DNA of 64,000 nt, taken from an uncultured virus (IMG/VR IMGVR_UViG_2882072473_000006) (taxonomy: Duplodnaviria > Heunggongvirae > Uroviricota > Caudoviricetes). Shown here in pieces: positions 8,076-55,807 of the stretch. The stretch is taken from the IMG/VR virus record IMGVR_UViG_2882072473_000006; one strand, given 5' to 3'. The notes under the pieces were generated by a model, which worked only from the letters and a program-made list of their open reading frames with translations, searched no databases and was not told the DNA's origin. Both the position numbers and the translations under genes were made by a program. The first letter of the stretch is position 1. Each line of letters begins with the position of its first letter.

Positions 8076-8108
8076 GCCAATTCTGATTTTTGAAAGGAGA
8101 AAAAGCAT

Positions 8109-8637: not shown

Positions 8638-8665
8638 GAAATCTGAATTTAAGGAGGTTTCGCAA

Positions 8666-8854
8666 ATGAAAATGACAGAAGAATTGAAACGTTCAAAATT
8701 GATTCTACGCATTGGGCGTGCACGCCGCTTATATGACGCTGGGAAAAATGCAGAAGAAATTGCGGCGGTTATGCGAGAGCCCATCGCGTTGATGGAAAAA
8801 TGGATCAATAACTTCAAAATCATTGACGAGAAAAGACGCACTCCAAACGGATAA
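8666..8854 (+). CDS. Small HTH protein
   Basis: AAGGAGG RBS; LYDAGKNAEEIAAVM...MEKWI HTH pattern. Confidence 0.7.
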   Translation: MKMTEELKRSKLILRIGRARRLYDAGKNAEEIAAVMREPIALMEKWINNFKIIDEKRRTPNG

Positions 8855-8893
8855 CTCCGCAATAGCAAGGGTCTGACGAAGACTCTTGCTTTT

Positions 8894-9100
8894 TTAGTCA
8901 GGGTCCCAACCGGAGCCCATGTCTTTGATTTGGTCTTCTCCTGTCCCCCAACTGGCGCTGATGTCGGGAAGAGCGCAATCATAGCAAACATTGGCGTCTG
9001 GGTATTGATCGTCGTAAACACCCTTATAATATTCTCGACTGAGCTTTCGTCTCACGGCGGCAACATCAAACTCTTTGCCGCATTCTATACAAACAGCCAT
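8894..9100 (-). CDS. Antisense-oriented small Cys-containing protein (moron-like)
   Basis: GGAGG RBS; CIEC...CYDC; extended -10 TGGTAAAAT upstream. Confidence 0.65.
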   Translation of the reverse strand: MAVCIECGKEFDVAAVRRKLSREYYKGVYDDQYPDANVCYDCALPDISASWGTGEDQIKDMGSGWDPD

Positions 9101-9147
9101 ATTCGCCCCTCCATACATAAAGGATGTTTCCATTTTACCATAGTCCT

Positions 9148-9174
9148 CGCCAAATTTACAAGGCGTTTTATGAG
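9148..9174 (+). promoter_or_regulatory. Phage motif copy 12
   Basis: CGCCAAATTTACAAGGCGTTTTATGAG. Confidence 0.7.
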
Positions 9175-9242
9175 GAGAGAGCGCTCTTTACCTCAATATC
9201 AGCCGGAGCCGCAAGGCCCGGACGACTTAGGAGGTAATGCAA

Positions 9243-9578
9243 ATGCGTAAGAAGGGTAAAAAGGTCATTCGGCCGGCAGGAGACGAACTGATGGACTACC
9301 TGAACCGGGGGTTCGCGATCTGCAACCGGTGCGGGGCGGTGATGGACCGGAGAGAAGACCCAAGAGGAGGTTGTGATATTTACGCCTGCCCGTCCTGCGG
9401 ATGGGAGATTGACGAGATGGAGTACGAGTATGAGAGCGGAGATCCGATGGAGCTCGTACAGGATGAAAGAGGCGATGACTACCTGGTCTTCCGGAACGAC
9501 ATGCCGCCCGCCGGGTGCAGAGCGTGCGGAGGCCCATACCCCTACTGCAAGCCGTCGTGCAGAATGTTCGACGACTAA
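9243..9578 (+). CDS. Zinc-binding protein
   Basis: AGGAGG RBS; several CxxC motifs. Confidence 0.75.
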   Translation: MRKKGKKVIRPAGDELMDYLNRGFAICNRCGAVMDRREDPRGGCDIYACPSCGWEIDEMEYEYESGDPMELVQDERGDDYLVFRNDMPPAGCRACGGPYPYCKPSCRMFDD

Positions 9579-9644
9579 GCATGACCAACGTAGAGGAGGA
9601 GCCCTGTAACAGGGGCTTTTCCTCTTTTATATTTGGAGGCAGAC

Positions 9645-10004
9645 ATGCGCTATCACTACGAGAAGCCGCCCATTTATCTTTCCATGTACGGACAGCGCTA
9701 CTGCTGCGACCATCCGGTCTATAACCACTGCACCCTGTTCCTTGTCGGCGAACGGGGCCTGGCGGTGATTCAGCAGCGGTACGACCCGGAGACGAAGCAC
9801 ACCTTCTGGGCCGAGGTAGACGAGTGGCTGACGGACCCATTATATCTGCACCCCCGGTTTCGGGCGTTCTTTGACCGCCGGGCCGGGACGGGTACGGACG
9901 GCCTCTACCCCACCGTGACCATCCGGCAGATCATGTGGGCGCTGAAGATGAAGCCCCTGCCCAAGCAGCCCTGGGAGACGGTCTTCGACCATACGCCGAT
10001 TTGA
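9645..10004 (+). CDS. Hypothetical protein
   Basis: GGAGG RBS; coding-like codon use. Confidence 0.75.
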   Translation: MRYHYEKPPIYLSMYGQRYCCDHPVYNHCTLFLVGERGLAVIQQRYDPETKHTFWAEVDEWLTDPLYLHPRFRAFFDRRAGTGTDGLYPTVTIRQIMWALKMKPLPKQPWETVFDHTPI

Positions 10005-10020
10005 CAACCTCCTTTATGAG
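9994..10020 (+). promoter_or_regulatory. Phage motif copy 13
   Basis: CGCCGATTTGACAACCTCCTTTATGAG. Confidence 0.72.
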
Positions 10021-10052
10021 AAACCAACTGATTTTGAAAGGGGTTGCGGTTT

Positions 10053-10202
10053 ATGAAAACATTCAAGAACAAGCTGTACGCTGTGGGGCTGATGCTCTGC
10101 GGGAGTGTTCCGACATTCCTGGAGCAGGACGCCACGGCGCTGGTATTTATCGGGATGATTGCAGTTCCGCTGTTCTTTGCAAAAGAAAACTGGATTTATT
10201 AA
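10053..10202 (+). CDS. 49-aa two-TM protein
   Basis: MKTFKNKLYAVGLMLCG...AKENWIY; GAAAGGGG RBS; terminator follows. Confidence 0.68.
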   Translation: MKTFKNKLYAVGLMLCGSVPTFLEQDATALVFIGMIAVPLFFAKENWIY

Positions 10203-10241
10203 AGGGAACGGCCCAGACAAGGGCTTTTCCTTTTATTTTTG

Positions 10242-10268
10242 CGCTTATTTCGCAGCTCCTATTACGGA
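10242..10268 (+). promoter_or_regulatory. Phage motif copy 14 (ACG variant)
   Basis: CGCTTATTTCGCAGCTCCTATTACGGA. Confidence 0.68.
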
Positions 10269-10299
10269 GAACGATGCTCGTAAAAGGAGGTAAAGGGGC

Positions 10300-10515
10300 A
10301 TGGACGAAATGAGACTGGAATCGAAATTTACAACAGGACTTGTATCAAAAATCGCAAGGACCGTTGTGCGTAAGAAGCTGGGCTACGATATGGATATTCG
10401 GCTCAACCGGCTGCGGACAACGGTGGTTGATGAAAAGACACACGTACATCTGGACGTCGATCTGGAGCTCACAAAGGAAGAGCTTGACAAATTATTGAAG
10501 AGCATCGGGCTCTGA
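10300..10515 (+). CDS. Small hypothetical protein
   Basis: AAGGAGG RBS; terminator follows. Confidence 0.78.
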   Translation: MDEMRLESKFTTGLVSKIARTVVRKKLGYDMDIRLNRLRTTVVDEKTHVHLDVDLELTKEELDKLLKSIGL

Positions 10516-10552
10516 GGCAGAGGCCCCATAACAGGGGCTTTTGTCTTTCTTC

Positions 10553-10579
10553 CGCAGATTCCGCAGGTTCTATTGTGGA
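10553..10579 (+). promoter_or_regulatory. Phage motif copy 15 (GTG variant)
   Basis: CGCAGATTCCGCAGGTTCTATTGTGGA. Confidence 0.68.
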
Positions 10580-10648
10580 GAGGCATACAGCGAGCTACGA
10601 AGCGAGGGTGGTAGTAGGCAACGCAAGACGGAAACCCACCTGCCTCTC
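10578..10648 (+). ncRNA. Putative small structured RNA
   Basis: GAGAGGCA/TGCCTCTC closing stem plus GGTGG/CCACC; lies between two motif copies with no gene. Confidence 0.5.
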
Positions 10649-10657
10649 TTAGGTTTT

Positions 10658-10684
10658 CGCAGATTTTGCAATTCCTATTATGGA
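10658..10684 (+). promoter_or_regulatory. Phage motif copy 16 (identical to copy 4)
   Basis: CGCAGATTTTGCAATTCCTATTATGGA. Confidence 0.78.
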
Positions 10685-10685
10685 G

Positions 10686-10756
10686 AGGAAGTTAGCTCAA
10701 TGGTAGAGCGCAGGCTGAAATGCCTGAGGCCGCCGGTTCGAGTCCGGCACTTTCTC
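10686..10756 (+). tRNA. tRNA-like RNA (Phe/GAA-like, aberrant anticodon arm, no encoded CCA)
   Basis: Acceptor AGGAAGT/ACTTTCT, D-arm GCTC-AATGGTA-GAGC, T-arm GCCGG-TTCGAGT-CCGGC, anticodon arm CAGGC-TGAAAT-GCCTG. Confidence 0.72.
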
Positions 10757-10804
10757 TTTCGCTTTTGCATGGAGAAAAAAAACAAGTTTGGAAAGGAGTT
10801 TACC

Positions 10805-11368
10805 ATGGAGAAACGGCCGCTGGACACGGAGCTTGAAGTTCTTTGGAGCGAGCACCTCGAAGACGATGTGTTCTCAGTACGCGCTTACAATGTTCTGGCG
10901 CATCGTCTCGGTCTTCGCACGTTAGGGGATATTTTGAATTTGACCCGCGACGACATTGCAAAGGCGAGGGGCGCGGGGAAAAAGACCCTGGACGACATTG
11001 CGAAGCTGGTTCGGTCGTGCGGATACGAACTGAACGGATTCACGGACGCCGGTCCGAACTGCAAAAAGTGCAAACAGAGGGATTTCCTGCGGCCGGCGCA
11101 TCAGCACTTTCTCAAATTGGCAAGGGAGTTCAACCGCTCGTATCATCATCCCAAGGACCGCGCCTTTGTGTTTCCAAACCGGATTTCCGGAGAGACGGGC
11201 TGGGATATTGTAAAGCGGGCCATATTCGCCACCTATAACGTGTCGAGCATTGCCTCTCTGCCAGACGGGGCGCAGGCGAAAATCAATGAATTTGCGATGG
11301 GTCTCACGGATATTCTGTTCCAACAGCTGCGGGACCGGGCAAAAGAATACAAACGGAGCAATATTTGA
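10805..11368 (+). CDS. Protein with N-terminal RNA polymerase alpha-CTD-like domain
   Basis: FSVRAYNVL...GLRTLGDI...RGAGKKTLDDI matches the alpha-CTD consensus LSVRSYNCL..AGI.T..DL....NLGKKSLEEI. Confidence 0.75.
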   Translation: MEKRPLDTELEVLWSEHLEDDVFSVRAYNVLAHRLGLRTLGDILNLTRDDIAKARGAGKKTLDDIAKLVRSCGYELNGFTDAGPNCKKCKQRDFLRPAHQHFLKLAREFNRSYHHPKDRAFVFPNRISGETGWDIVKRAIFATYNVSSIASLPDGAQAKINEFAMGLTDILFQQLRDRAKEYKRSNI

Positions 11369-11377
11369 AAGGAGAAA

Positions 11378-11842
11378 ATGAGCATGGAAGTTAAAATTGT
11401 GGGCGAGATCAAGTTCAAGACCTGTACCCTCCCGGTGTATCGGGATTTGGACGAGCCCCTGTTCAAGGCGGGGGACGTCGCCGAGCTGATGGACTATGGG
11501 CCGAACAATATTTGGAACCTGACCAACCTTTGCGAAGAGGACGAGAGGCTGGTGCTGTCATCGGAAGTGGCGGGTCAACACCGGCGGGTGACGTTCCTCA
11601 CCGAGAGCGGACTCTACAGCGTCCTTGCCCAGAGTCGGAAGCCGGTTGCCAGGGCGTGGCGGCGGGTCATTGCCGAGGAGCTGATTGCCCTGCGGCGGTC
11701 CCGTGGCAAAAATATCTCGGAGCAGTTCGAGGACTGGGACCACATGGCGGACACCATCTACTTTGACGAGGTGACCGGGCGGCTGATGCGGTCGGTGACC
11801 GTTCCCGGCGGGGACGTGGAGCAGGTTCCCTACGAGCCCTGA
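11378..11842 (+). CDS. BRO-N domain antirepressor-like protein
   Basis: PLFKAGDVA...FLTESGLY..L..SRKP.A. Confidence 0.8.
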   Translation: MSMEVKIVGEIKFKTCTLPVYRDLDEPLFKAGDVAELMDYGPNNIWNLTNLCEEDERLVLSSEVAGQHRRVTFLTESGLYSVLAQSRKPVARAWRRVIAEELIALRRSRGKNISEQFEDWDHMADTIYFDEVTGRLMRSVTVPGGDVEQVPYEP

Positions 11843-11846
11843 CGCC

Positions 11847-12158
11847 ATGAAAGCGGAAATTGGATACCCCGATGTGGTCATGGGGGATTTTATACAGGAC
11901 CTTATCGGCGACATCGAGCATAACATGCGGCTTGCTCCGCCCAACGACCAGTATTTCGAGGAGCTCAGCATTCAGAAATTTACCCTGCAACAGCTGCTCC
12001 GGGAGATTGGCAGGCATGAAGGAGACTCTCCCACCGCCGTAGTAGCGAGATTTGTGGAGAGGATGTCTGCCACAGCAAAAGAGGACGACCCACGGTTCGT
12101 CTTTTCTATCTCCAGGGACGCGGCCCAGTCCATCCTGGACGGATTATATTTTGACTAA
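11847..12158 (+). CDS. Hypothetical protein
   Basis: Operonic ORF. Confidence 0.7.
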   Translation: MKAEIGYPDVVMGDFIQDLIGDIEHNMRLAPPNDQYFEELSIQKFTLQQLLREIGRHEGDSPTAVVARFVERMSATAKEDDPRFVFSISRDAAQSILDGLYFD

Positions 12159-12175
12159 ACAGAAAAGGAGAAACA

Positions 12176-12640
12176 ATGACTGGAGAAGTTTACATTCATT
12201 ATGGCGCGGACGCCTTCGACCCGAGCCATGGGTTTCCGGTGGTAAACACGAAATACTCCTGGGTAAAGCCCCACGGAGGTCTATGGGCATCGAGAAAACG
12301 TGCGTCCTACGGCTGGGCCAAATGGTGCGAGGAGAATTCCTTTCGGGATTGCGCCGCAGAACCCTCATTTCAGTTTATCATGCGAAATCCGGAAAAAGTA
12401 GCGGTCATTCATAATTTGAACGATCTGCGACAGCTTCCGATGGTGAGAGACGTTCCGCCCGGCATGTGGGAGGAAATTGACTTTGTGGAATGTCTGCGGC
12501 GAGGAATTGACGCTGTTGAACTCTGCTGGTATGGGGAGGAATACCAAGACCAGCGGGCCGATGATTTATATCTCGCTTTGTATGGGTGGGACTGTGACTC
12601 CATTGTGGTCCTCAACCCCGACGCAGTGATTCAGATTTAA
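12176..12640 (+). CDS. Hypothetical protein, possible ADP-ribosyltransferase-like fold
   Basis: AAAGGAG RBS; YIHYG...KPHGGLWAS...GIDAV...WDCDSIVVLN; fold is a guess. Confidence 0.65.
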   Translation: MTGEVYIHYGADAFDPSHGFPVVNTKYSWVKPHGGLWASRKRASYGWAKWCEENSFRDCAAEPSFQFIMRNPEKVAVIHNLNDLRQLPMVRDVPPGMWEEIDFVECLRRGIDAVELCWYGEEYQDQRADDLYLALYGWDCDSIVVLNPDAVIQI

Positions 12641-12661
12641 TACTCGAAAGGAGAAAACATC

Positions 12662-13235
12662 ATGGTTAAGACCTATCTTGATATTCTGAGCGAGCGCGGC
12701 ATCCGCCCCTTCCTGACCGACGAGGCTTTTGAGGAGCTCCAGAAGTTTGACTACAAGAGCCAGTACGCCATTCCCGGCCAGGTAATGCCGGTCTTCAAGC
12801 ACCCCAACCAGCACAAGATCGAGCTGGGCAAGACCACCAATCTGATCGGCGACATGTGCTGGTACGGAGCCAGCGTGGAGGAGCTGGTGCGGTCCATCAA
12901 GTATGGCATGGTGGTGCTCGACGCGGACAAACGCCATTTGGACTGGAAGAAGGCCGCCGAGGACTTCGGTATTCAGGAGCTTCTCAAGGAATACCGCCGG
13001 TTCCGCCGCAAGCCCAAGCTGACAGAGCGGGAAAAAGCTTGTCATTACCGCTTATACCGGCTATGTTCTGGAGGGTACGGCCGGAAAGGTAGTGGATTTC
13101 GTGGAACAGGAGCTGGGTCATTCCATTCAGACGCCGGAGCCGCCCGCAGTCCCGGTTGTTGTGGAGGTGCGCCGGGCTTTGCAGGAGGAATTCTGCGAGA
13201 TCTGCCGGAAGCACCACATCTTTGATTATATTTAA
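12662..13235 (+). pseudogene. Stand-alone paralog of an RNA polymerase segment, with an apparent +1 frameshift at 13032-13036
   Basis: N-terminal part aligns with 46084..48804; the +1 frame after GAAAAAG resembles 34260..34451 and stops at 13235. Confidence 0.6.
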
Positions 13236-13248
13236 GGAGGATACGGAC

Positions 13249-14079
13249 GTGAACGCAAAAACGACCCTGCTCCACGGAGCCGGGAAAGCGGTCAAAAAGG
13301 CGGCGCCGACGATATTGACCGTTGTCAGCGCGGCGGGGGTGGTGGCCACGGCGGCTCTGGCGGTCAGGGCCACACCCAAGGCCCTCAAGCGCATTGAGGC
13401 GGCAAAAGCGGTCAAAAAGGCGGAAAATGGCGGAAATTTGACCCGAATGGAGACGATAGGAGCCTGCTGGCAATGCTATGTACCGGCGGCGGCCACGGGA
13501 ATCGCTGTAATCGGGTGTATTTTCGGAGCAAATGCCCTCAACCGGCGTCAGCAGGCGGCTCTGGTCAGCGCCTACGCCCTGGTCAGCCGGTCCTACAACG
13601 ATTACCAGCGCAAGGTCAAGGAGCTCCACGGCGTAGACGCCCACCGGAGGATCATGGAAGCCTTGGCTGCCGAAAAGAGCAAAAAGCAGCCCATCTACGC
13701 GGGCACCCTGATCGGGTCGTCCTCTCTGGACTTTGAGGACGCCGGCGAGGAAGAGCGGCTATTCTACGACGCCATCTCGGAGCGGTATTTTCAGGCCACC
13801 ATCAGCCAGGTGCTCCAGGCCGAATACCACCTCAACCGGAACTTTGCCCTGGGCGGAGGATTCATTACCCTGAACCAGTTTTACGAGTTCCTGGGCATCG
13901 AGCCGGTACCCGGCGGGGACGAGGTGGGCTGGATGGTTTCGGACGGGCTCTACTGGGTGGACTTTGACCACCAAAAGACCGTGGTAGACGACGGGCTCAA
14001 CGGCGAGGTGGAGTGCTACATCATCGACGCACCCTTCCCGCCGGTAAGCGAGCGTGAATACGAGGACATGGAGCTCTGA
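13249..14079 (+). CDS. DUF6353-like membrane-associated phage protein, paralog 1
   Basis: P.ILT...A.GVV.TA.LAV.ATPKA...Y.PA...LN.FY..LG....GW. Confidence 0.8.
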   Translation: MNAKTTLLHGAGKAVKKAAPTILTVVSAAGVVATAALAVRATPKALKRIEAAKAVKKAENGGNLTRMETIGACWQCYVPAAATGIAVIGCIFGANALNRRQQAALVSAYALVSRSYNDYQRKVKELHGVDAHRRIMEALAAEKSKKQPIYAGTLIGSSSLDFEDAGEEERLFYDAISERYFQATISQVLQAEYHLNRNFALGGGFITLNQFYEFLGIEPVPGGDEVGWMVSDGLYWVDFDHQKTVVDDGLNGEVECYIIDAPFPPVSEREYEDMEL

Positions 14080-14085
14080 GGGCTC

Positions 14086-14112
14086 CGCAGAAATTGCATC
14101 TCCTATTATGGA
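14086..14112 (+). promoter_or_regulatory. Phage motif copy 17
   Basis: CGCAGAAATTGCATCTCCTATTATGGA. Confidence 0.8.
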
Positions 14113-14142
14113 GAATCTATATTTAACAGGAGGTTTGACTTT

Positions 14143-14319
14143 ATGGACTCGAAAACGATATTTAAGGTATTGTCCTTTGTAGGTATGGCCCTGGGCGGGA
14201 TCGGCACACTGCTGTCCGCCTGGGCTGACGGAAGGGAGCAGGACGCGATTATCGAGGAGAAAATAAATGAAGCACTGGCCGCCCGTGAACATGGAGAAAA
14301 GGAAAGCGAGGAGCCCTGA
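14143..14319 (+). CDS. 58-aa membrane protein
   Basis: MDSKTIFKVLSFVGMALGG...; AGGAGG RBS; terminator overlaps stop. Confidence 0.72.
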   Translation: MDSKTIFKVLSFVGMALGGIGTLLSAWADGREQDAIIEEKINEALAAREHGEKESEEP

Positions 14320-14353
14320 CCGGGGCTCTTTGCTTTTGCAGGAGCCGCTGTCC

Positions 14354-14656
14354 ATGAACGAACAGGCGATCCTCTTTCTCATGGAGGTCCTGAACGGCTT
14401 TGAGGAGCCGCCAAGGTCCGACTGGCCCAGGCACGAGGCGGAGGAAGTCAGCTTTTCCCGCTGGGCGGTGGAGGAGCTGCTGCAACAGGTCTGGGGCCAC
14501 CCGTGGACACTGGCCTCTGAGACGGTAGAGCGTTTCGCCGCGAAGCTGGGGCTATACGCCGAGACCTGCGTCACGGACCAGCAGCACCGGATCTTTCGGA
14601 TCGCGGCCGAAACCGTGAGGGGATTCCTCGATGAGATCGAGAAGCTGGAGCGATGA
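14354..14656 (+). CDS. Hypothetical protein
   Basis: AGGAG RBS; ATGA coupling downstream. Confidence 0.65.
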   Translation: MNEQAILFLMEVLNGFEEPPRSDWPRHEAEEVSFSRWAVEELLQQVWGHPWTLASETVERFAAKLGLYAETCVTDQQHRIFRIAAETVRGFLDEIEKLER

Positions 14657-15453
14657 AAACATTGATATTTATGAGAGGAGATGGCGTATTGAACAAACAA
14701 GCAATTTCAAACGCCCTGAAAGCGTTGCAGAAAACCGTGAAAAAGCACAGCCCGGAGATTTTGACGGGCATCGGCATCGCCGGGATGACCGCCGCCGCTG
14801 TGATGGCGGTCAAGGCCACCCCCAAGGCCCTGCGGATGGTGGACGAAAAGGAAATCCGGGACGGAAAGCGCCTGACCACCGGCGAGATCGTCAAGACCAC
14901 CTGGAAATGTTATATTCCCCCGGTCGTCACCGGCGTATGCTCCGCGGCCTGCATCATCGGGGCCAGTTCCATCAGCGCACGGCGCAACGCGGCCCTGGTC
15001 ACGGCCTACACCATTTCGGAGACCGCGTTGAAGGAGTACCGGGACAAGGCGGTTGAGGTGGTCGGCGTGAAGAAGGAGCAGGCCATCCGGGACGCGGTGG
15101 CCAAGGACAAGCTGGAGAAGGCCAATGTCAAAGAGCGGGAATTCATTTCCACCGGACGGGGCGAGACCCCCTGTTTCGACCCGCTGACCAACACCTGCTT
15201 CAAGTCGGACATCGAGAGCCTCCGCCGGGCGGAAAACACGCTGAACAAGCGGATGCGGGACGAGGTGAAGATCACCGTCAATGAGTTTCTGATGGAGATA
15301 GGCCTGGAGCCCTGCGACGACTCTATCGGAGAGACCATGGGGTGGGACATCGACAAGGGCTACATTGAGCTGGACTTCAGCTCCCAGCTGGTGGACGGCG
15401 TCCCTTATCTGGTGCTGGGGCACCGGGTCCCGCCGGTCTATCTGGGCTGGTGA
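14653..15453 (+). CDS. DUF6353-like protein, paralog 2
   Basis: KKHSPEILTGIGIAGM...AVKATPKA; same motifs as paralog 1. Confidence 0.8.
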   Translation: MKTLIFMRGDGVLNKQAISNALKALQKTVKKHSPEILTGIGIAGMTAAAVMAVKATPKALRMVDEKEIRDGKRLTTGEIVKTTWKCYIPPVVTGVCSAACIIGASSISARRNAALVTAYTISETALKEYRDKAVEVVGVKKEQAIRDAVAKDKLEKANVKEREFISTGRGETPCFDPLTNTCFKSDIESLRRAENTLNKRMRDEVKITVNEFLMEIGLEPCDDSIGETMGWDIDKGYIELDFSSQLVDGVPYLVLGHRVPPVYLGW

Positions 15454-15457
15454 CATC

Positions 15458-15484
15458 CGCAGAAATTGCATCTCCTATTATGGA
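15458..15484 (+). promoter_or_regulatory. Phage motif copy 18 (identical to copy 17)
   Basis: CGCAGAAATTGCATCTCCTATTATGGA. Confidence 0.8.
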
Positions 15485-33607: not shown

Positions 33608-33634
33608 CGCAAAAAGTGCAGCTCCTATTATGGA
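33608..33634 (+). promoter_or_regulatory. Phage motif copy 19
   Basis: CGCAAAAAGTGCAGCTCCTATTATGGA. Confidence 0.78.
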
Positions 33635-45161: not shown

Positions 45162-45188
45162 CGCGAAAAAAACAGACTCTTTTATGGA
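45162..45188 (+). promoter_or_regulatory. Phage motif copy 21, heading the nuclease-RNAP operon
   Basis: CGCGAAAAAAACAGACTCTTTTATGGA. Confidence 0.75.
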
Positions 45189-46083: not shown

Positions 46084-48804
46084 ATGAACCCCATCGCGGA
46101 AGATATTTTGATGCACTATGGCGTCAAGCGGCGCTCTGGGCGCTACCCCTGGGGTTCTGGTGAAAACCCCTATCAGCATGGCGGCGACTTTCTGGCCAGA
46201 GTGGAAGAACTCGAAGCCATGGGAAAGAGCCAAAAAGAAATTGCCGAAGAACTGAAGATGTCCACTACTGACCTTCGTATGCAGGTTCGGGTGGCAAAGC
46301 ATGAGCGACGGGCTCTCCAGGCGGAACGGGCCAAGTCCCTTCGTGAAGAAGGAAAGACTCTCGATGAGATTGCCAAAATCATGGGGTACAACAACGACTC
46401 CTCGGTTCGTGCGCTTCTCAATGAAAACACCGCCAGCAACAAGAACAAGGCCCTTGCTACCGCCGAGGCATTGAAGAAAGAGCTGGCAGTAAAAGGGGCT
46501 CTTGATGTTGGCGAGGGCGTAGAGCAGCAGCTTGGCGTCTCGAAAGGAGTTCTTCAGGAAGCTCTGTTCATTTTGGAAACAGAAGGTTATAACCGATATG
46601 GCGTTGGAGTCCCTCAGGTGAACGATCCCAAGAAGCGGACAATCACTCCGGTTATTTCGGTTCCCGACATCGAGCAGAGAGACGCCTACCAGAACCTCGA
46701 CATCATCAAGTCGGTGGGCGACTATCACTCTTCGGATGGAGGCGCATCCTGGGATAAGCGCGAGTATCCGGCAAGCATCGATTCAAGCCGAGTCAAGGTG
46801 CTCTATGGGGATGAGGGCGGCTCGAACAAGGACGGAGTCATTGAAATTCGTCGTGGCGTTGCAGACCTTGACCTGGGAAACGCTCACTATGCGCAGGTAC
46901 GCATTCTTGTGGATGGGACGCATTACCTCAAGGGCATGGCCATGTATTCTGATGACATGCCGGAGGGGTGTGACATCGTGTTTAACACGAACAAGCACTC
47001 CGGAACGCCCAAGATGGATGTATTCAAAAAGATTCAGGATGACCCAGACAATCCTTTCGGCGCATTCATCAAGGCCAACGGTCAGAGCTACTACCCCGAC
47101 CCGAATGGCAAGTACACAGACCCGATTACCGGCGAGAAAAAATCTTTGTCGGCCATCAATAAGCTGAAGGAGGAGGGTGACTGGGACAAGATGAGTAAGA
47201 ACTTGTCCTCCCAGTTCCTATCCAAGCAGCCCATCAAACTGATCCAGAAGCAGTTGGATTTGACCTATGCCGATGCGGCCGATGAATTCGCCGAGATTTG
47301 CTCTCTGAACAACCCGACTATCAAGCGGAAGCTTCTTATGGACTTTGCAGATGAATGTGATTCTGCCGTCGTCCATCTGAAAGCGGCCGCCCTCCCCCGG
47401 CAGAGCACACAGGTCATCCTGCCTATCACAGCAATGAAGGAAACGGAAATCTATGCCCCCAACTATCGTAACGGTGAGAAAGTTGTGCTGATCCGCTACC
47501 CTCATGGCGGAACCTTTGAAATTCCGGAGTTGACGGTCAACAACAAGAATCAGTCGGCCATCTCCGTTCTCGGCAAGAACATCAGGGATGCGGTCGGCAT
47601 CAACCCGAAGGTGGCGGAACGGCTGTCCGGCGCGGACTTTGATGGCGACCAGGTTGTTGTCATTCCTGTTGGCGGAAAGGTTTCTGTAAAATCTACCCCC
47701 GCCCTGGAGGGGTTGAAAGGTTTCGACCCTAAAACGGAATACTCCACCGAGGGGAAGACCGGTATCCGGCTTCTCTCAAAAGAAGCCACCCAGATCGAGA
47801 TGGGGAAGATTTCCAACCTCATCACCGATATGACCTTAAAAGGGGCCCCCACCGAGGACATCACGAAAGCTGTCAGACACAGCATGGTCGTCATCGATGC
47901 GGCAAAGCACAAACTCGACTACAAGCGTTCGGAGATTGAAAACGACATCCCCACCCTTCGTAAGCGGTGGCAGGGTTACACTGACCCCGAAACCGGCAAA
48001 GAGAAAGGTGGTGCCTCCACCCTGCTTTCCAGGCGCAAGCAGACCGTCGATGTTCCCGAGCGTCAGGGCAGTGGACGCATTGACCGGGAGACTGGCGAAG
48101 TCGTCTATAAGGAGTCTGGTCGAACCTATATAGACCCTAAGACTGGGAAAACAGTTCAGGCCACGACGAAGATCAAGTTGCTGGAGAAAACCAAGGATGT
48201 TCGCACCTTGTCCTCTGGCACCGTTCAGGAAGATGCCTATGCCGACTATGCCAATCGTATGAAAGCACTCGCCAACCAGGCGAGACTTGAGTATCTGGAT
48301 ACGCCGACATTGGTACGGAACGCCAGCGCAGCAAAAACATATGCGCCTGAAGTCGCAAGGCTGACCAGTGCACTGAAGACTGCGCAGCTTAACGCCCCTA
48401 AGGAACGTGAGGCCCAGCGCATCGCCAATGCTCAGGTAAAGGCCAAGGTTCAGGCGAACAATGTCACCGACAAAGACGAAATCTCTAAGATTCGTCGTGC
48501 AGCGATCAGTGACGCTCGCGTTTCCACTGGTGCAAGCGGAAAAGGAACGCGCATTACGATCTCCGATGGAGAATGGGAAGCAATCCAAGCTGGCGCGATC
48601 TCTGATACAACCTTGAAAGAGATTCTTCGTTACTCTGATCCCGATGTCGTCCGGGAGCGCGCAACCCCAAGAGCATCGACGCAGCTGTCTGAAGCTCGTG
48701 TCAATCGCATTAAAGCGATGGCCAATTCTGGAAGCACCAACTCCGAAATTGCAGATGCTTTGGGCATTTCGCCTTCTGTCGTTTCCAAGTATCTCAATGA
48801 GTAA
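46084..48804 (+). CDS. Putative single-chain double-psi beta-barrel RNA polymerase (YonO/RdRP-like) with HTH domains
   Basis: DGVIEI, QVR..KGM, LSSQ, IRYPH, LSGADFDGD, GKISN and VIDAAK in RdRP order; two N-terminal and one C-terminal HTH. Confidence 0.75.
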   Translation: MNPIAEDILMHYGVKRRSGRYPWGSGENPYQHGGDFLARVEELEAMGKSQKEIAEELKMSTTDLRMQVRVAKHERRALQAERAKSLREEGKTLDEIAKIMGYNNDSSVRALLNENTASNKNKALATAEALKKELAVKGALDVGEGVEQQLGVSKGVLQEALFILETEGYNRYGVGVPQVNDPKKRTITPVISVPDIEQRDAYQNLDIIKSVGDYHSSDGGASWDKREYPASIDSSRVKVLYGDEGGSNKDGVIEIRRGVADLDLGNAHYAQVRILVDGTHYLKGMAMYSDDMPEGCDIVFNTNKHSGTPKMDVFKKIQDDPDNPFGAFIKANGQSYYPDPNGKYTDPITGEKKSLSAINKLKEEGDWDKMSKNLSSQFLSKQPIKLIQKQLDLTYADAADEFAEICSLNNPTIKRKLLMDFADECDSAVVHLKAAALPRQSTQVILPITAMKETEIYAPNYRNGEKVVLIRYPHGGTFEIPELTVNNKNQSAISVLGKNIRDAVGINPKVAERLSGADFDGDQVVVIPVGGKVSVKSTPALEGLKGFDPKTEYSTEGKTGIRLLSKEATQIEMGKISNLITDMTLKGAPTEDITKAVRHSMVVIDAAKHKLDYKRSEIENDIPTLRKRWQGYTDPETGKEKGGASTLLSRRKQTVDVPERQGSGRIDRETGEVVYKESGRTYIDPKTGKTVQATTKIKLLEKTKDVRTLSSGTVQEDAYADYANRMKALANQARLEYLDTPTLVRNASAAKTYAPEVARLTSALKTAQLNAPKEREAQRIANAQVKAKVQANNVTDKDEISKIRRAAISDARVSTGASGKGTRITISDGEWEAIQAGAISDTTLKEILRYSDPDVVRERATPRASTQLSEARVNRIKAMANSGSTNSEIADALGISPSVVSKYLNE

Positions 48805-48822: not shown

Positions 48823-49086
48823 ATGGAAATGTGTATGCTTACTACTACCGATAACCCCTACGACCCTTTTACACAGTATGAAGCGTGGTATCGGTTCGAC
48901 GAAGACAACGGCTATCATTCCTGCGCTTTCTTAGCGCGCATCGCCCGTACTTCCGATCAGCTCTCTGACAAGGAGAACCAGGAAGAAATCGAGCGAGCAA
49001 TCAACGATATCATCAAGTACGACCCCCTGGGCATCTATAAAAAGGTCAAGAAGATTGTGCAATCCGAGCCTGCCGTGACCGCATGA
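48823..49086 (+). CDS. Hypothetical phage protein
   Basis: LTT.DNPYDPF; RBS. Confidence 0.75.
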   Translation: MEMCMLTTTDNPYDPFTQYEAWYRFDEDNGYHSCAFLARIARTSDQLSDKENQEEIERAINDIIKYDPLGIYKKVKKIVQSEPAVTA

Positions 49087-50781: not shown

Positions 50782-51165
50782 ATGGAGATCACAGAAAGCG
50801 TCCTGACATCTGTCAAGAAACTGCTGGGGATCGACGAAGGCTACACGCACTTTGACGCCGACATTGTAATGCACATCAACAGCGTGTTTTCGATTCTGAC
50901 ACAGATGGGGGTCGGGCCGGCAAACGGATTCTCCATTACGGGGAAAGACGAAGGCTGGTCCGATTTCATTTCTGGCGGGGCCGTCCTGCCCCTGGTCAAA
51001 TCTTATGTCGGCCTGAAGGTGCGCCTGCTGTTTGACCCGCCCCTCAGCTCTGCGGCCGTCGAGTCTATGAACCGGCAGATCAGCGAGTTTGAGTGGCGGC
51101 TTTTCGTTGCGGCAGACCCAGTCGAACCCACCAGCGGGAAGGAGGAACTTCAAAATGGAGCATGA
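50782..51165 (+). CDS. Putative head-tail connector protein
   Basis: SVL.SVKK.LGI...FD.DI..HIN...FDPP; location in the virion module. Confidence 0.65.
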   Translation: MEITESVLTSVKKLLGIDEGYTHFDADIVMHINSVFSILTQMGVGPANGFSITGKDEGWSDFISGGAVLPLVKSYVGLKVRLLFDPPLSSAAVESMNRQISEFEWRLFVAADPVEPTSGKEELQNGA

Positions 51166-51670
51166 TGCATTACTGCACTACGGAATCAAAGGAATGAAGT
51201 GGGGCGTGCGCCGTTACCAGAACAAGGACGGTTCGCTGACCCCCAAAGGAGAGGCGCGCTACGACCGTGACAAGCGGGAGAACGCGGCCAAGAAGAAGGA
51301 AAACCGGATTGACCTCTCCCAGCCTGATCCGAAGCGCTGGGCAAAGGAGGACCTGGAGCGCACCAAGCGCACCGTGGACGCCAGCGCCAACCTGGCCAAG
51401 GAGCTGAAGAAGCTGGACGAGAGCACCACTTCCAAGCCGACACCAAAGCGGATGGACCTGTCCAAGATGAGCGACAAGGAGATGCGGGATCAGATTAACC
51501 GGGAGCTGCTGGAACGGCAGTATAACCAGCTGTTCGCGGAAGTGCCTGCCGCTCAGGTCTCCAAGGGCCGCGAAGCGCTCAAGACCACGCTGGAAGTTGC
51601 CGGCAGCGTTCTGGCCATTGGCAGCAGCGCACTGGGCATCGCGTTGGCCATCAAGGAACTGAAGGGCTGA
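51155..51670 (+). CDS. HYGxKGMKWGVRR-tagged protein
   Basis: N-terminal LLHYGIKGMKWGVRRYQN. Confidence 0.8.
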   Translation: MEHDALLHYGIKGMKWGVRRYQNKDGSLTPKGEARYDRDKRENAAKKKENRIDLSQPDPKRWAKEDLERTKRTVDASANLAKELKKLDESTTSKPTPKRMDLSKMSDKEMRDQINRELLERQYNQLFAEVPAAQVSKGREALKTTLEVAGSVLAIGSSALGIALAIKELKG

Positions 51671-51681
51671 GGTGAGTCGGT

Positions 51682-52566
51682 ATGGAGCTGCGCCACCACG
51701 GCATTTTGGGCCAGAAATGGGGCGTGCGCAACGGCCCGCCCTATCCATTGAGCGGCGGTGACTATACTCCGTCCCAGCGGAAGGCCATTTCCAACAAACG
51801 CAAAAGCGGCAACAGCATCTACAACAAGAAGCACTTCGATGAGGTGCTGAAGGTTGATAAGACCACGCTGAGCACGCTGTCCTATGATAAGGACCGGACC
51901 AAGAACGCCGATATGTTCTACGCCACCCACCATGCTCTGGATAAACACCAGTACAACGCCCTGTTCAACCGGCCGATTCCCCAGACGGTCTATGATAAGG
52001 ATGGAAAGGCGATCGGCACAGGTTCGTTCATGAAGTACCGGATCGACAATTCCCTCAAGACCGACCTGAAGGTGGCCAGCGAGGATTCCGGAGCCAAGGT
52101 CTTTATGGACCTCTATAAGAAGGACCGGGATTTCTACAACTTTGTCACTGACCGGGAGCGGATGCAGGGGTACTTTGTAAACGACAAGTACAAGTTCAAG
52201 GGCTACCGCGAAGCAGCGGCCGTCCTTGGGAAGATGCGGGAGCCGGACTACAAGCCGACCTCCGATGACCTTCAGACCGTGTACCGGATGTTCAACTACG
52301 TCATCCCCTATGACGGTCAGGGCGACAGCCGAAAGGGACGCGATATGTATAACCAGCGCACCAAGTTCTTCCATGCGTGCAAGGAGGCCGGTTATGGCGC
52401 AGTTCTGGACACGAACGACGCCATATACGGCGGGTTCAAGGCCAAGTCACCCATTATCGTGTTCGATATGGAGCAGGTGGTCCCGAAAGACGTCTACCGC
52501 ACAAATCTGACGGATCAGAAGTTTTCCACTCTGGTCCTGGTCGGCCGGAAGCTGCTGGGCTTGTAA
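51682..52566 (+). CDS. HHG-tagged protein with possible ART-like C-terminus
   Basis: N-terminal LRHHGILGQKWGVRNGPPYPL; C-terminal GYGAVLD.ND...SPIIVFD. Confidence 0.78.
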   Translation: MELRHHGILGQKWGVRNGPPYPLSGGDYTPSQRKAISNKRKSGNSIYNKKHFDEVLKVDKTTLSTLSYDKDRTKNADMFYATHHALDKHQYNALFNRPIPQTVYDKDGKAIGTGSFMKYRIDNSLKTDLKVASEDSGAKVFMDLYKKDRDFYNFVTDRERMQGYFVNDKYKFKGYREAAAVLGKMREPDYKPTSDDLQTVYRMFNYVIPYDGQGDSRKGRDMYNQRTKFFHACKEAGYGAVLDTNDAIYGGFKAKSPIIVFDMEQVVPKDVYRTNLTDQKFSTLVLVGRKLLGL

Positions 52567-54351: not shown

Positions 54352-54909
54352 ATGAAGCCCTATGAAAAGCCTCTCTCCCCGCAGGAGTACCTGATGCACT
54401 ACGGTGTCAAGGGTATGAAATGGGGCGTAAGACGCTACCAGAACTACGACGGTTCTTACACCCGCAAGGGTCTGGAACGGTATCGCAAAGCGGAGTCGGA
54501 CTACGAAACCGCTAAGTCGAAAGCAGACGAAACCAGGGCCGCCTACAAATCCGGTCAAGCTACCCGTCAGCAGGTCAAGGATGCCAAGAGCGCTGTTAAG
54601 ACCGAGAAGCGTAAAATGGAAAACGCTTATGAAAAGCTGAAAACCGACAAACTGGCCGATGAAGGAAAGAAGCTTTACCAGAGTGGAAAAACTATTTCGG
54701 GAAACACCCAAGCGACCTATTTGGCCGAGGGCGTTATCATTGCTGGAAGCACCGTGGTGTCCAGACTTCTCGCGAACCAACTGAACAACCAGGAGGTTGC
54801 CAATATTGCCGCATCGACCATCGCGATCGGCGGAACGATTGTCAATGGTTTACTGGCGGCAAAGACGAGCAGGGAGAACAAACGGCTGAGAGCGTACTAC
54901 GCCCACTAA
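54352..54909 (+). CDS. HYG-tagged protein with C-terminal hydrophobic helices
   Basis: LMHYGVKGMKWGVRRYQN. Confidence 0.8.
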   Translation: MKPYEKPLSPQEYLMHYGVKGMKWGVRRYQNYDGSYTRKGLERYRKAESDYETAKSKADETRAAYKSGQATRQQVKDAKSAVKTEKRKMENAYEKLKTDKLADEGKKLYQSGKTISGNTQATYLAEGVIIAGSTVVSRLLANQLNNQEVANIAASTIAIGGTIVNGLLAAKTSRENKRLRAYYAH

Positions 54910-54925
54910 GCGAAGGAGGAAAAGT

Positions 54926-55807
54926 ATGGGTCCTTACGACAAACCTTTTTCTCCCCAAGAATACCTGATGCACTACGGCGTCAAGGGTATGAAATGGGGC
55001 GTACGTCGTTACCAGAACAAGGATGGTACATTGACAAAAGCCGGAAAAGAACGGTATAGTCAGAACCAGCAGGACGGGGTTGATTCTTTTCTGAAGAGTG
55101 TGGGTTCCAAAAAGGTTTCCGAATTGACCGGTTCTGTAAATGAAGATCTCGCAATCCAGGCGGTTACATATGTTTCCGCATTTGCCGCTGTTCTCGCCGT
55201 GAAAGCGGTACAAAACCGAATGCTGCGGAAAGGCCGGATGAAAGAGCTGGATAGGCTCAACCGGGAGAAGGATATTAAAGACTTTGACGAGTGCCCCCGC
55301 CTCCCCCGGAAGATGAAAGCGGAAGAGAGCGTCAAAGTAACCAATCCGGATTATCCTGATTTGGGCACCACCATGAATTGCACCTTCTGCACAACCGCCA
55401 TGGCCCTTCGAGAGAAGGGATATGACGTGCAGGCGACAAAAGTCAGTGATGGATTCTTTTCTGATGACTTTTTCAAAGCCACTTTCAATTCCCCTGAGGT
55501 CAAAATGGGAAGGAAAAAGTCGGGGCAAGCCGTTCTCGATACGCTTTCGCAGACCGGCGACGGGTCCTATGGCAATCTGACCGTGGCTTGGAAACTCGGG
55601 GGTAAGCATAGTCTTTTCTGGAAGAATGAGGGCGGCAGAACTCGAATCTATGACGGTCAGAGCGGAGAAGAGATTACTCAATCTCCGTCGAAAACCAGAT
55701 CGTTCATGGACTTTGTCAATCTGAAAACCATCACATATAACCGCCTTGATAATTGCGAGCCAACCACCTATGCCTTGGCCGCGGTTGAACGACCTAAAAA
55801 GATGTAA
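54926..55807 (+). CDS. HYG-tagged protein with papain-fold (Tox-PL/deamidase-like) toxin domain
   Basis: Tag plus NCTFC...R.KGYDV.A...GGKH......G.T.IYDGQ (C-H-D triad). Confidence 0.72.
   Translation: MGPYDKPFSPQEYLMHYGVKGMKWGVRRYQNKDGTLTKAGKERYSQNQQDGVDSFLKSVGSKKVSELTGSVNEDLAIQAVTYVSAFAAVLAVKAVQNRMLRKGRMKELDRLNREKDIKDFDECPRLPRKMKAEESVKVTNPDYPDLGTTMNCTFCTTAMALREKGYDVQATKVSDGFFSDDFFKATFNSPEVKMGRKKSGQAVLDTLSQTGDGSYGNLTVAWKLGGKHSLFWKNEGGRTRIYDGQSGEEITQSPSKTRSFMDFVNLKTITYNRLDNCEPTTYALAAVERPKKM

Follow-up and report, generated by a model that had tools for sequence, protein, structure and literature searches.

Our analyses suggest that the plus-strand gene at 46084..48804 of the window (the whole 64,000-nucleotide stretch of viral DNA analysed here) codes for a DNA-dependent RNA polymerase of the two-barrel type that consists of one polypeptide and belongs to the Lactococcus phage 1706 ORF75 / FP_oengus gp55 family. 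We put the probability at about 0.6 that this enzyme would work in such a way, starting transcription free of a sigma factor on a private promoter of ~27 nt. Judged by its profile match, the gene is a full-length member of this family, PHROG 4291 (phrog_4291, E=0, 1207 bits, with residues 4-905 aligned to profile positions 7-906 of 909). The gene and its predicted parts, all on the plus strand, are:

46084..48804: gene for the single-chain two-barrel RNA polymerase (PHROG 4291 family; 906 aa, ATG start), assigned from phrog_4291, the structure model and fold matches
46084..46185 (aa 1-34): N-terminal tag (..LMHYGVKRRSGRYPWGSG..), predicted disordered, with pLDDT <50 for residues 1-19 and 22-34
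46186..46494 (aa 35-137): two N-terminal HTH units, from profile matches and modelled helices
46498..46659 (aa 139-192): winged-helix-like unit, a probable assignment from the model
46765..48303 (aa 228-740): catalytic core with two double-psi beta-barrels, from VIA-align matches
47635-47649 (aa 518-522): DFDGD metal-binding loop (D518, D520, D522)
48682..48801 (aa 867-906): C-terminal sigma-region-4-like HTH, from HTH_38 and Sigma70_r4_2

The seven motifs that the first-pass annotation had quoted were each found once in the 906-aa ORF and in the order it gave: DGVIEI (aa 250-255), AQVRILVDGTHYLKGM (270-285), LSSQFL (374-379), VLIRYPH (468-474), AERLSGADFDGD (511-522), MGKISNL (573-579) and SMVVIDAAKH (600-609). 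Its coordinates for DFDGD also checked out. As read from the sequence, this motif set in ORF 46084-48804 is well beyond chance. Conservation was examined in an alignment that combined the query and 83 of the 150 cluster representatives (50% identity) listed; a single near-full-length matched stretch was required of each row, and 67 rows were left out. The 83 representatives are 45-56% identical to the query. Columns invariant in all 84 sequences are D250, G251, Q271, R273, K283, G284, Q377, R471, P473, H474, S515, G516, A517, D518, D520, G521, D522, G574, N578, D605 and K608. They include the three aspartates on whose conservation among homologues the first-pass annotation had staked its claim (84/84), and they cover the beta'-like barrel in both its R-x-P motif (R471 and P473, also 84/84) and its metal-binding D-x-D-x-D loop. 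We take D250, R273 and K283 to be the catalytic-site residues of the beta-like barrel, an assumption made from their order, not from residue-level superposition. In that barrel, one acidic and two basic invariant residues are represented by D837, K979 and K987 of Rpb2 (PMC2919709). The order of the three invariant residues in the window protein agrees with this.

By its modelled fold, the 906-aa protein is a two-barrel (double-psi beta-barrel) RNA polymerase. The AlphaFold (AF2) model has a pLDDT of 84.7, and its 500-residue core is modelled with high confidence. VIA-align matched it to ZmRDR2 (RDR2; Z 15.0, aa 229-853, 444 residues), QDE-1 (Z 13.7, aa 228-738, 374 residues) and the Thermus phage nvRNAP P74 gp62 (Z 11.1, aa 229-724, 350 residues); other phage enzymes followed (gp96, Z 7.8; gp66, Z 6.7), and isolated DPBB chains aligned to aa 434-542 with Z 8-9.4. 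The comparison of the model with QDE-1 by Foldseek, which had been proposed as a check, recovered the double-psi-barrel fold at E 2e-9; Thermus phage P32 gp64 (3e-7), RDR2 (5.6e-7) and P23-45 gp96 (2.6e-4) were matched as well. The largest subunits of cellular RNAPs were also among the Foldseek and VIA-align matches. The Pfam RdRP family PF05183 is absent from the query protein at E<=1 and is matched by 33/50 homologues at the same threshold (best 2.9e-6), while PDB sequence searches gave HTH matches only, with non-significant hits to the catalytic loop (8h2n, E 0.92; 7s01_d, E 1.4). Taken together, the fold matches, the invariant catalytic residues and the PF05183 matches in homologues bear out the earlier proposal of an HTH-flanked, single-chain polymerase of the RdRP-like two-barrel class.

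Two N-terminal HTHs and one C-terminal HTH had been described from the sequence. The C-terminal one is solid: Pfam HTH_38 matches aa 867-902 with E 4.2e-8, several more HTH families exceed their cut-offs, and Sigma70_r4_2 reaches 26.6 bits in the query (cut-off 25.7) and was found in 50/50 homologues. The N-terminal pair (~aa 47-68 and 90-112) is weaker by sequence, with Sigma70_r4 at aa 82-101 (E 4.2e-4, below the Pfam cut-off), HTH_18 at 56-111, NCBIfam Cbp1 at aa 39-128 (below cut-off) and the designed HTH repeat 8vd6 on aa 40-114 (E 8.2e-5); in the model both units are helical pairs with pLDDT of ~80-88. The winged-helix-like unit at aa 139-192 was missing from the first list of domains. 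Its model has helices at 146-149 and 154-166 and, after these, strands at 170-178 and 181-192, and it carries a weak Pfam GntR match at aa 147-168.

The polymerase had been called hidden. It is true, as had been expected, that HMM annotation sees only the HTHs: in addition to the Pfam result, NCBIfam found nothing above cut-off in the query protein, and 24 of the best 30 phage records label the homologue an HTH or DNA-binding protein. The word itself goes too far, since PHROG 4291 names the family, 4 of the same 30 records say RNA polymerase, and the family was described computationally in 2010 and 2021 (PMC2919709; bioRxiv 10.1101/842583), including its HTHs at both ends and its DxDGD loop. 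In Ruprich-Robert & Thuriaux 2010 (PMC2919709) it is the "1706" group among the YonO-like proteins, and Koert et al. obtained an HHpred value of 95.68% for the family alignment against RdRP (bioRxiv 10.1101/842583). Our literature search found no bench work on the PHROG 4291 family. The identification of a polymerase in the window is correct but already published, and a gut prophage has here yielded a further, new member of the family.

The family comprises 923 clusters (50% identity, E<=1e-30) and 251 cultured-phage records, and its range covers phages of Firmicutes and Actinobacteria. Full-length homologues are FP_oengus gp55 of a Faecalibacterium phage (54.8% identity), proteins of Arthrobacter phages that stand among the actinobacteriophage "HTH DNA-binding" proteins (49.7%) and 1706 ORF75 (37.5%). 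Profiles and the model place HTH domains at both ends of the window protein, as in the rest of the family; these homologues share its HTH-core-HTH layout, its N-terminal HYG..SGRYPWGSG motif and its gene neighbourhood, and we see no difference in kind between them and the window lineage. In the window, a small early gene at 12662-13225 copies polymerase residues 540-632; no such fragment gene was seen in FP_oengus 1-50000, Mudcat 10000-59443 or the whole of 1706.

Assignment to a "YonO class" stands at the level of the superfamily and fails by sequence. YonO of the Bacillus prophage SPbeta is also a phage-encoded, single-chain, two-barrel enzyme with a D-x-D-G-D loop, and is reported to be a DNA-dependent RNAP (PMC5467207). 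No sequence relation that would place the window protein in YonO's own family was detected (hhalign of the 84-sequence profile, probability 0.2%; BLASTP E 3), in a comparison of limited sensitivity because the YonO side is a single sequence. The top structural matches, QDE-1 (2J7N, 7Y7P) and RDR2 (7W84), extend over both barrels and the helices that come next (Z 13.7-15.0) and have the ordered motifs and the DxDGD loop in common with the window protein. In contrast, they are only ~10-14% identical to it and are eukaryotic enzymes of RNA silencing that lack flanking HTHs. Among phages, P23-45 gp64 (non-virion), P23-45 gp96 (virion, fused to the tape measure) and gp66 of the crAss-like phage phi14:2 are two-barrel single-chain polymerases as well. 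Their sequence families differ from PHROG 4291, and we noticed no HTH modules in them. The P23-45 enzymes are described as using private promoters (PMC10770324), and two of the three are described as virion-delivered (PMC10770324; bioRxiv 10.1101/2020.03.07.982082).

The polymerase gene lies third in a putative operon, again on the plus strand:

45162..45188: promoter-motif copy heading the endonuclease-exonuclease-RNAP operon, from a pattern match
45201-45554: endonuclease gene (phrog_93), upstream of the polymerase gene
45526-46080: exonuclease gene (phrog_3953), upstream of the polymerase gene
48823..49086: conserved small gene after the polymerase gene (phrog_4303)

A terminator (45098-45118) is found directly upstream of the motif copy. 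The endonuclease-exonuclease-polymerase order is repeated in FP_oengus gp53-55 and Mudcat gp92-94, and the small gene has counterparts in FP_oengus gp56, Mudcat gp95 and 1706 orf76. In the window, FP_oengus (gp53-56), Mudcat (gp92-95) and ReqiPepy6 (gp105-107), the polymerase gene follows the exonuclease gene as the last of the replication block, and the packaging genes come after it. Motif copies precede the equivalent operon at 27684 in FP_oengus and 45498 in Mudcat; in phage 1706, none lies directly before the polymerase gene. No strong plus-strand terminator was found between 48804 and 53000, so transcription of the operon probably continues through the packaging and head genes.

The motif at the head of this operon, CGC-N8-CA-N5-TWTTATGGA with fixed spacing (in full, over ~27 nt, CGC-N8-CA-N5-T(A/T)TTATGGAG), occurs in 17-19 same-strand copies ahead of non-structural genes. 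Apart from the operon copy, they are located on the plus strand as follows:

3644..15484: early region with 17/19 motif copies, from pattern and repeat matches
Copy starts, first part of the early region: 3644, 4310, 4649, 5015, 5184, 6673, 6967, 7509, 8049
Copy starts, second part of the early region: 8611, 9148, 9994, 10242, 10553, 10658, 14086, 15458
10685..10757: tRNA gene (ARAGORN; Rfam tRNA, 58.5 bits)
33608..33634: isolated motif copy, ahead of the gene for a 67-aa product (33651-33854)

Each early-region copy precedes a small plus-strand gene or tRNA, and many follow directly on a terminator; the general arrangement is terminators before the copies and RBS-led genes after them. A pattern search of the window allowing <=1 mismatch gave 17 matches, all on the plus strand, against a mean and a maximum of 0 in 100 shuffles. 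The nearest host genome examined (3.1 Mb) held 18 matches, 17 of them in the prophage on the polymerase strand and 1 elsewhere, and the reversed-pattern control on that genome gave 1+1. With one fixed-spacing regex, the plus/minus counts were 18/0 in the window, 11/1 in FP_oengus, 7/0 in 1706 and 7/0 in Arthrobacter phage Mudcat and, unlike the window, 0/0 in the 40 kb of SPbeta around yonO; simulated sequence gave 0.03-0.3 matches. These cross-phage counts are descriptive because the regex was derived from the same four phages. When FP_oengus was searched with the window's exact motif core, matches were scattered (6 plus, 2 minus), and the related motif emerged only through de novo repeat finding. 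The architecture of the motif recurs in the three relatives, whose hosts belong to other classes. A conserved CGC/CA upstream half with fixed spacing is found in phages of Clostridia, Bacilli and Actinobacteria. The motif does not resemble the promoters of the Thermus and crAss-like phage polymerases, which are AT-rich or GC-rich. The existence of the motif, its strand bias, its placement and its privacy to phages are established, and the ~19 copies look like the polymerase's own promoter.

The start site appears to adjoin the TATTAT box, which would be a poor fit to sigma-70. The tRNA gene begins 4 nt past the TATTAT of motif copy 10658-10684, and in at least 5 copies the GGAGG of the motif is the sole Shine-Dalgarno, 6-9 nt ahead of the ATG. 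In two metatranscriptome runs, the RNA-library contig of highest abundance begins at 9172 / 9176, the G after the TTTTAT of copy 9148. The RNA evidence consists of assembled contigs (two RNA runs of one study and one run of unrecorded type), which cannot prove starts, strand or level. Assembly also tends to break contigs where the motif is repeated (14084-14115 is one such place), and for this reason we used just one boundary, that at the weak copy 9148, as a hint.

Based on these observations, we infer that the protein is an active enzyme, that its template is DNA, that it reads the motif and that it starts there; DNA dependence and the replacement of sigma are made more plausible by the private promoter motif. 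Catalysis would involve the DFDGD loop of the second barrel, the R-x-P motif and the D/R/K residues of both barrels. A sigma factor would be dispensable if the polymerase's own HTHs, two or three N-terminal and one sigma-4-like C-terminal, dock it on the promoter. Transcription would begin at the G directly after the TATTAT box, in a T7-like geometry. The ~19 promoters would serve small early genes, a tRNA and the polymerase-containing operon, from which transcription probably continues downstream. Several points count against the sigma-free model. The motif's upstream half might be recognised by some other factor of the phage, phage 1706 lacks a copy directly before its polymerase gene, and YonO, the only tested prokaryotic relative, serves late and not early genes.

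A further point is that the phage, which has an integrase, is temperate; at induction the first polymerase molecules must be made by something other than the phage enzyme. One could envisage a division of labour as with YonO, in which host RNAP with its primary sigma, perhaps helped by an activator from the phage, recognises the motif as a -10-type promoter for early and middle transcripts including the polymerase mRNA, and the phage enzyme, not carried in the virion, transcribes the late operon only, from another signal. YonO is reported to transcribe the SPbeta late genes as one operon (PMC5467207), and the window gene lies directly upstream of the packaging/head module with no strong terminator in between. 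The TATTAT box also resembles the sigma-70 -10 element, being exactly TATAAT in Mudcat, and sigma-70-like consensus matches are enriched in the early region (19 versus 7.2 +/- 2.6), which means that the host enzyme may contribute; around the polymerase gene the same scan gave no enrichment (7 versus 5.3 +/- 2.5). Nevertheless, we regard this arrangement as unlikely. A -35 element at 16-18 nt is missing from the motif, which instead keeps its fixed-spacing CGC/CA half across phages of three host classes; the tRNA 5' end, the overlapping Shine-Dalgarnos and the RNA contig boundary put the start too near the hexamer for sigma-70; the motif is essentially missing from the host chromosome; and a second repeated motif ahead of late genes was not seen.

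The nearest folds, RDR2 and QDE-1, together with the Pfam RdRP matches in homologues, could also be read as signs of a polymerase that copies RNA, in keeping with the database name "RNA-dependent RNA polymerase", or of one that makes replication primers in place of transcripts. This seems very improbable in a dsDNA phage whose DNA polymerase gene (20802-24950) already has a primase-like region (phrog_864, 1829, 1156), and several HTHs of the sequence-specific type along with a private DNA motif favour promoter-directed transcription. QDE-1 itself is reported to accept DNA templates (PMC9508822). Least credible of all is a catalytically dead relic that now serves only as an HTH DNA-binding regulator. 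Most database records do say HTH protein and Pfam sees the HTHs alone, but the catalytic-site residues are all invariant among sequences as diverged as those aligned here, and the core is modelled with high confidence.

The N-terminal HYG..WG tag hints at packaging in the virion, as does the label of the phage 1706 homologue given below; N4 gp50, crAss gp66 and P23-45 gp96 are phage RNA polymerases that are packaged in this way. H11, G13, S18, G19 and R20 of the tag are invariant in the 84-sequence alignment. Searched against 2484 ORF segments, an HMM of the tag segment picks out two DUF7211 proteins, one at 54334-54906 (E 0.005) and one at 54890-55804 (E 0.012), and Pfam DUF7211 matches the polymerase itself weakly (E 0.11). 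The tagged head-module genes, on the plus strand, are:

51155..52566: two head-module genes with products that start with the DUF7211 motif (HYGIKGMKWG; HHGILGQKWG; Pfam E 6.3e-11 and 2.1e-3)
54352..55807: two more DUF7211-tagged genes, in the terminase-portal interval (E 3.7e-13 and 1.1e-12)

The second gene of the latter pair encodes a weak glutamine-deamidase-like domain (Gln_amidase, E 1.1e-4, below cut-off). In the protein atlas, DUF7211 clusters are viral; our literature search on GMKWG / DUF7211 found nothing relevant. The product of 1706 orf75 is labelled "structural protein" in EU081845.1, a label that reportedly rests on mass spectrometry; a review that cites this phage makes no mention of virion proteins. 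With the HYG..WG tag common to the polymerase and four head-module proteins, one of them with a deamidase-like effector domain, we tentatively raise the possibility that the polymerase forms the centre of a transcription system that is self-contained and sigma-free, being loaded into the capsid by its tag and injected with the DNA, its HTHs then starting transcription at the ~19 private promoters. Were this so, silencing the polymerase gene in the prophage would keep the whole lytic programme off, and in cos-ended relatives, whose linear map ends with the polymerase operon, transcription would arrive at the late genes only once the genome ends join.

In conclusion, single-chain two-barrel polymerases serve as models of the enzyme from which all cellular RNA polymerases descend, and the PHROG 4291 family adds HTH modules fused to the core and, now, a precise candidate promoter. 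Sigma-independent initiation, if true, would also make this enzyme a compact orthogonal transcription module.

Our analysis confirmed that the open reading frame at 46084..48804 (+ strand, ATG start) is real and encodes a 906-aa protein. A first-pass annotation had read this protein as an RNA polymerase from sequence alone, and each of the seven strings quoted in its support occurs once in the ORF, in the order claimed, with DFDGD at aa 518-522 (nt 47635-47649). Among 50%-identity cluster representatives, 2520 relatives were found at E<=1e-3, 1661 at <=1e-10 and 923 at <=1e-30. An alignment of 84 sequences was made from the query and 83 of the best 150 listed representatives (45-56% identity to the query); rows with a single near-full-length matched stretch were kept, and the remaining 67 of the 150 were left out. 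All of the key residues proposed earlier are invariant in this alignment (D250 G251, Q271 R273, K283 G284, Q377, R471 P473 H474, S515-D518, D520-D522, G574 N578 and D605 K608). The C-terminal HTH stands out clearly (HTH_38 at 867-902, E 4.2e-8, with Sigma70_r4_2 also over the Pfam cut-off), while the two N-terminal HTH units have weaker sequence support and confidently modelled helix pairs. When 50 homologues were scanned one by one with Pfam, all 50 matched Sigma70_r4_2 and 33 matched the RdRP family PF05183 at E<=1 (best 2.9e-6).

An AlphaFold2 model built from the 84-sequence alignment had a mean pLDDT of 84.7 and a pTM of 0.73, with unreliable modelling confined to residues 1-34 and a loop near 216-227. 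Foldseek against the PDB returned QDE-1 as the top match (E 2e-9), followed by Thermus phage P32 gp64 and P74 gp62 (3e-7 and 5e-7), RDR2 (5.6e-7) and P23-45 gp96 (2.6e-4). Multisubunit polymerases of cells and viruses matched through their largest subunits at ~1e-3. TM-scores were low (~0.3), as expected with large multidomain chains. A second structural aligner, independent of Foldseek, gave Z scores of 15.0 for ZmRDR2 (444 residues, rmsd 5.7, model 229-853), 13.7 for QDE-1 (374 residues, model 228-738), 11.1 for P74 gp62 (350 residues), 9.7-10.3 for the largest subunits of Pol I, Pol II and ASFV (over 399-643) and 6.7 for crAss-like gp66 (375 residues). Isolated double-psi barrels matched model 434-542 at Z 8-9. 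Based on the matches from both aligners, the core as modelled (aa 228-740) is that of a two-barrel polymerase nearest to the eukaryotic RdRP branch. The proposed class of YonO and eukaryotic RdRPs holds at superfamily level, but the protein falls outside the sequence family of YonO from the prophage SPbeta: hhalign of the family profile gave a probability of 0.2% and BLASTP an E of 3, a comparison of limited reach because the YonO side is one sequence. The identification as a polymerase was correct, and enzymatic activity is predicted.

The enzyme had also been described as hidden; this did not hold, since the protein had already been identified in published work and in PHROGs, where phrog_4291 ("RNA-dependent RNA polymerase") matches end to end (E=0, 1207 bits, residues 4-905). 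The phage-1706 group was one of five YonO-like groups with eight invariant two-barrel residues (Ruprich-Robert & Thuriaux 2010, PMC2919709). Koert et al. (bioRxiv 10.1101/842583) reported the same protein in FP_oengus, Lactococcus phages and an actinobacteriophage supercluster, with an HHpred match to PF05183 (95.68%), HTHs at both ends and a DxDGD loop, and regarded it as a signature gene of the phage group; the words "promoter" and "intergenic" are absent from the text of that preprint. A literature search for bench work on the phrog_4291 family found none. By tblastn, homologues occur in 251 phage records (coverage >=80% in 249), with hosts in Arthrobacter (95), Gordonia (55), Streptomyces (54), Lactococcus (13) and others, and Faecalibacterium phage FP_oengus is the top match (54.8% identity). 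The expectation that automated annotation would report only an HTH protein was fair. Pfam matched HTH families only, NCBIfam gave nothing over cut-off, and 24 of the best 30 records are named HTH/DNA-binding; PHROGs and four of those 30, however, say polymerase, and the other two read "hypothetical protein".

The window is a prophage of FP_oengus type, with many small genes on the + strand and a gene order like that of FP_oengus and Arthrobacter phage Mudcat.

Landmark genes of the prophage
2194-3426, - strand: integrase
20802-24950: primase-polymerase, then helicase, endonuclease and exonuclease
46084..48804, + strand: RNA polymerase, then a conserved small gene
52585-54333: terminase, in the packaging/head genes that follow (HNH, connector, terminase, portal, protease-capsid fusion)

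In the nearest genome compared (G001, a bacterial assembly of 3.1 Mb), the same prophage is embedded in a contig and its polymerase is 98% identical. The copy in the window may be interrupted because it holds an IS66-family transposase at its left edge (1-987, -; N at 993) and, directly after the protease-capsid gene within the late operon, an unassigned 480-aa ORF (59578-61020, -) and an IS3-family orfA and orfB pair (61081-62555, -). Two opposite-strand ORFs of 427 and 383 aa (37397-39870, -) form an island in an otherwise one-directional genome, and PHROG and Pfam searches assigned them no family. At 43548-43741 (+), in a stretch without a called gene, a 26-nt sequence occurs three times at a spacing of exactly 84 nt (two copies are 96% and 73% identical to the reference one); these repeats may be iterons or an origin. 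A small early gene (12662-13225, +) is 34% identical over its first ~115 residues to polymerase residues 540-632 (tblastn E 4.6e-13) and retains the LGxxxNL and VxDAxK motifs. Its reading frame in the window is noise-like past about residue 123, and the absence of one base at 13032, common to all three sequencing runs compared, would shift it into a frame ending at 13235. This paralogue is also present in G001 and was not found in FP_oengus 1-50000, whole 1706 or Mudcat 10000-59443. Another early protein (10700-11368, +) contains a domain resembling the C-terminal one of bacterial RNA polymerase alpha (PF03118, E 1.1e-8) and may act on the host polymerase as a decoy or an adaptor; its true start lies further downstream because the long ORF version overlaps a tRNA.

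Repeat finding uncovered a 30-nt, promoter-like family of at least 13 copies, on the + strand only. The pattern CGC-N8-CA-N5-TWTTATGGA (<=1 mismatch) matched the window 17 times, each on the + strand, against a mean and maximum of 0 in 100 dinucleotide-preserving shuffles, and a slightly looser fixed-spacing regex gave 18 plus and 0 minus matches. Together they define 19 sites, of which 17 fall within 3644-15484 and the other two are at 33608 and 45162. Copies are found directly 3' of intrinsic terminators (29 terminator-like sites vs 13.7 +/- 4.5 in shuffles) and directly 5' of small genes with an RBS, and one directly precedes a tRNA gene. Copy 45162 heads the endonuclease-exonuclease-polymerase operon, after which no strong + strand terminator was found up to 53000. 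The pattern matched G001 18 times, 17 of them within the prophage (C28:86086-127620), on the same strand as the polymerase, and one elsewhere; a reversed-pattern control gave 1+1. Motif architecture and spacing are common to the window, FP_oengus (CGCGAAAAAnnCAGnnnnCTTTATGGA; plus 11, minus 1), Lactococcus phage 1706 (CACAnGTTTTACAnnnnCTATAGTAGA; regex 7, core 11, plus strand only) and Mudcat (CGCGTAAAnTACAnGGGCTATAATGA; plus 7, minus 0), and in three of the four the polymerase operon has a copy upstream of it, the exception being 1706. The regex found none in 40 kb around yonO in SPbeta and 0.03-0.3 matches in simulated sequences; because it was written after these phages had been viewed, the cross-phage counts describe the pattern and do not test it.

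Three sequence-level clues suggest that transcription would start at or directly after the TATTAT box. With a sigma-70 -10 element, the start would fall 6-8 nt downstream. The 5' end of the tRNA gene at 10685-10757 (+; Rfam 58.5 bits) lies 4 nt past TATTAT, and in at least five copies (3644, 5184, 6673, 6967, 7509) the GGAGG of the motif is the sole Shine-Dalgarno, 6-9 nt from ATG. The third clue is only a hint and comes from assembled contigs of two metatranscriptome runs (mouse gut, one study), with possible DNA carry-over, although depth is very uneven (0 to 99). The early-region contig of greatest depth spans 9172-9585 in one run (depth 99) and 9176-9589 in the other (depth 59); it corresponds to gene 9237-9578 and begins at the G past TTTTAT of the weak copy 9148. 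Sigma-70-like consensus matches are, however, enriched in the early region (19 vs 7.2 +/- 2.6), which counts against a start at the box. The best of these, TTGACA-18-TATGAT (3975-3946, -; 11/12 positions), faces the integrase; it is a candidate lysogeny promoter read by the host. ARAGORN reported a four-base anticodon ('gaaa') for the tRNA without assigning an amino acid, and a seven-base anticodon loop could not be drawn. Gene 9237-9578 (+) encodes a cysteine-rich, zinc-ribbon-like protein of 113 aa, and was by far the deepest early-region piece in both RNA-library runs.

With regard to what reads the motif, its upstream half is conserved among phages whose hosts belong to three bacterial classes. 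G001 has a single match outside the prophage. A separate phage factor acting on the host polymerase could read such a motif. Since the conserved upstream half is host-absent and these phages share a signature gene with sigma-4-like HTHs, the simplest reading is that the polymerase itself would recognise the motif directly, its HTHs in place of sigma, as the first-pass annotation had proposed.

Residues 1-34 of the polymerase are disordered in the model, yet H11, G13, S18, G19 and R20 are invariant, and the homologues from FP_oengus, 1706 and ReqiPepy6 carry LxHYG[VTI][KR]RxSGRYPWGSG. Four packaging/head-module proteins begin with a related Pfam DUF7211 motif (HYGVKGMKWGVRRYQ), and 35835-36758 holds a fifth copy at an internal position.

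Proteins beginning with the DUF7211 motif (Pfam)
51155-51670, + strand: DUF7211-motif protein
51682-52566, + strand: DUF7211-motif protein
54352-54909, + strand: DUF7211-motif protein
54926-55807, + strand: DUF7211-motif protein with a weak Gln_amidase match (E 1.1e-4, just under cut-off)

Gln_amidase is a papain-fold glutamine deamidase of polymorphic-toxin type, and the match suggests that the DUF7211 tag may carry effector cargo. When an HMM of the polymerase N-terminus was run on 2484 ORF segments, two of these four DUF7211 proteins ranked next after the polymerases (E 0.005 and 0.012), and three more DUF7211-type proteins appeared only at E 0.7-1.9, among random matches. In the phage 1706 record (EU081845.1), "structural protein" is the label given to orf75, the polymerase homologue, and also to orf7, which is of DUF7211 type. 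The label of ReqiPepy6 gp106 is a copy of the 1706 label. Mass spectrometry was reportedly used in the phage 1706 paper. Virion two-barrel polymerases are known in crAss-like phages (bioRxiv 10.1101/2020.03.07.982082) and P23-45 (PMC10770324). Residues 1-34 are a possible virion-packaging tag, although packaging would not be the sole source of the enzyme because the phage is temperate and induction cannot rely on injected enzyme.

In conclusion, the promoter-like motif, the geometry of the putative start site and the N-terminal tag would add an inferred, testable mechanism to the known identification of this polymerase.
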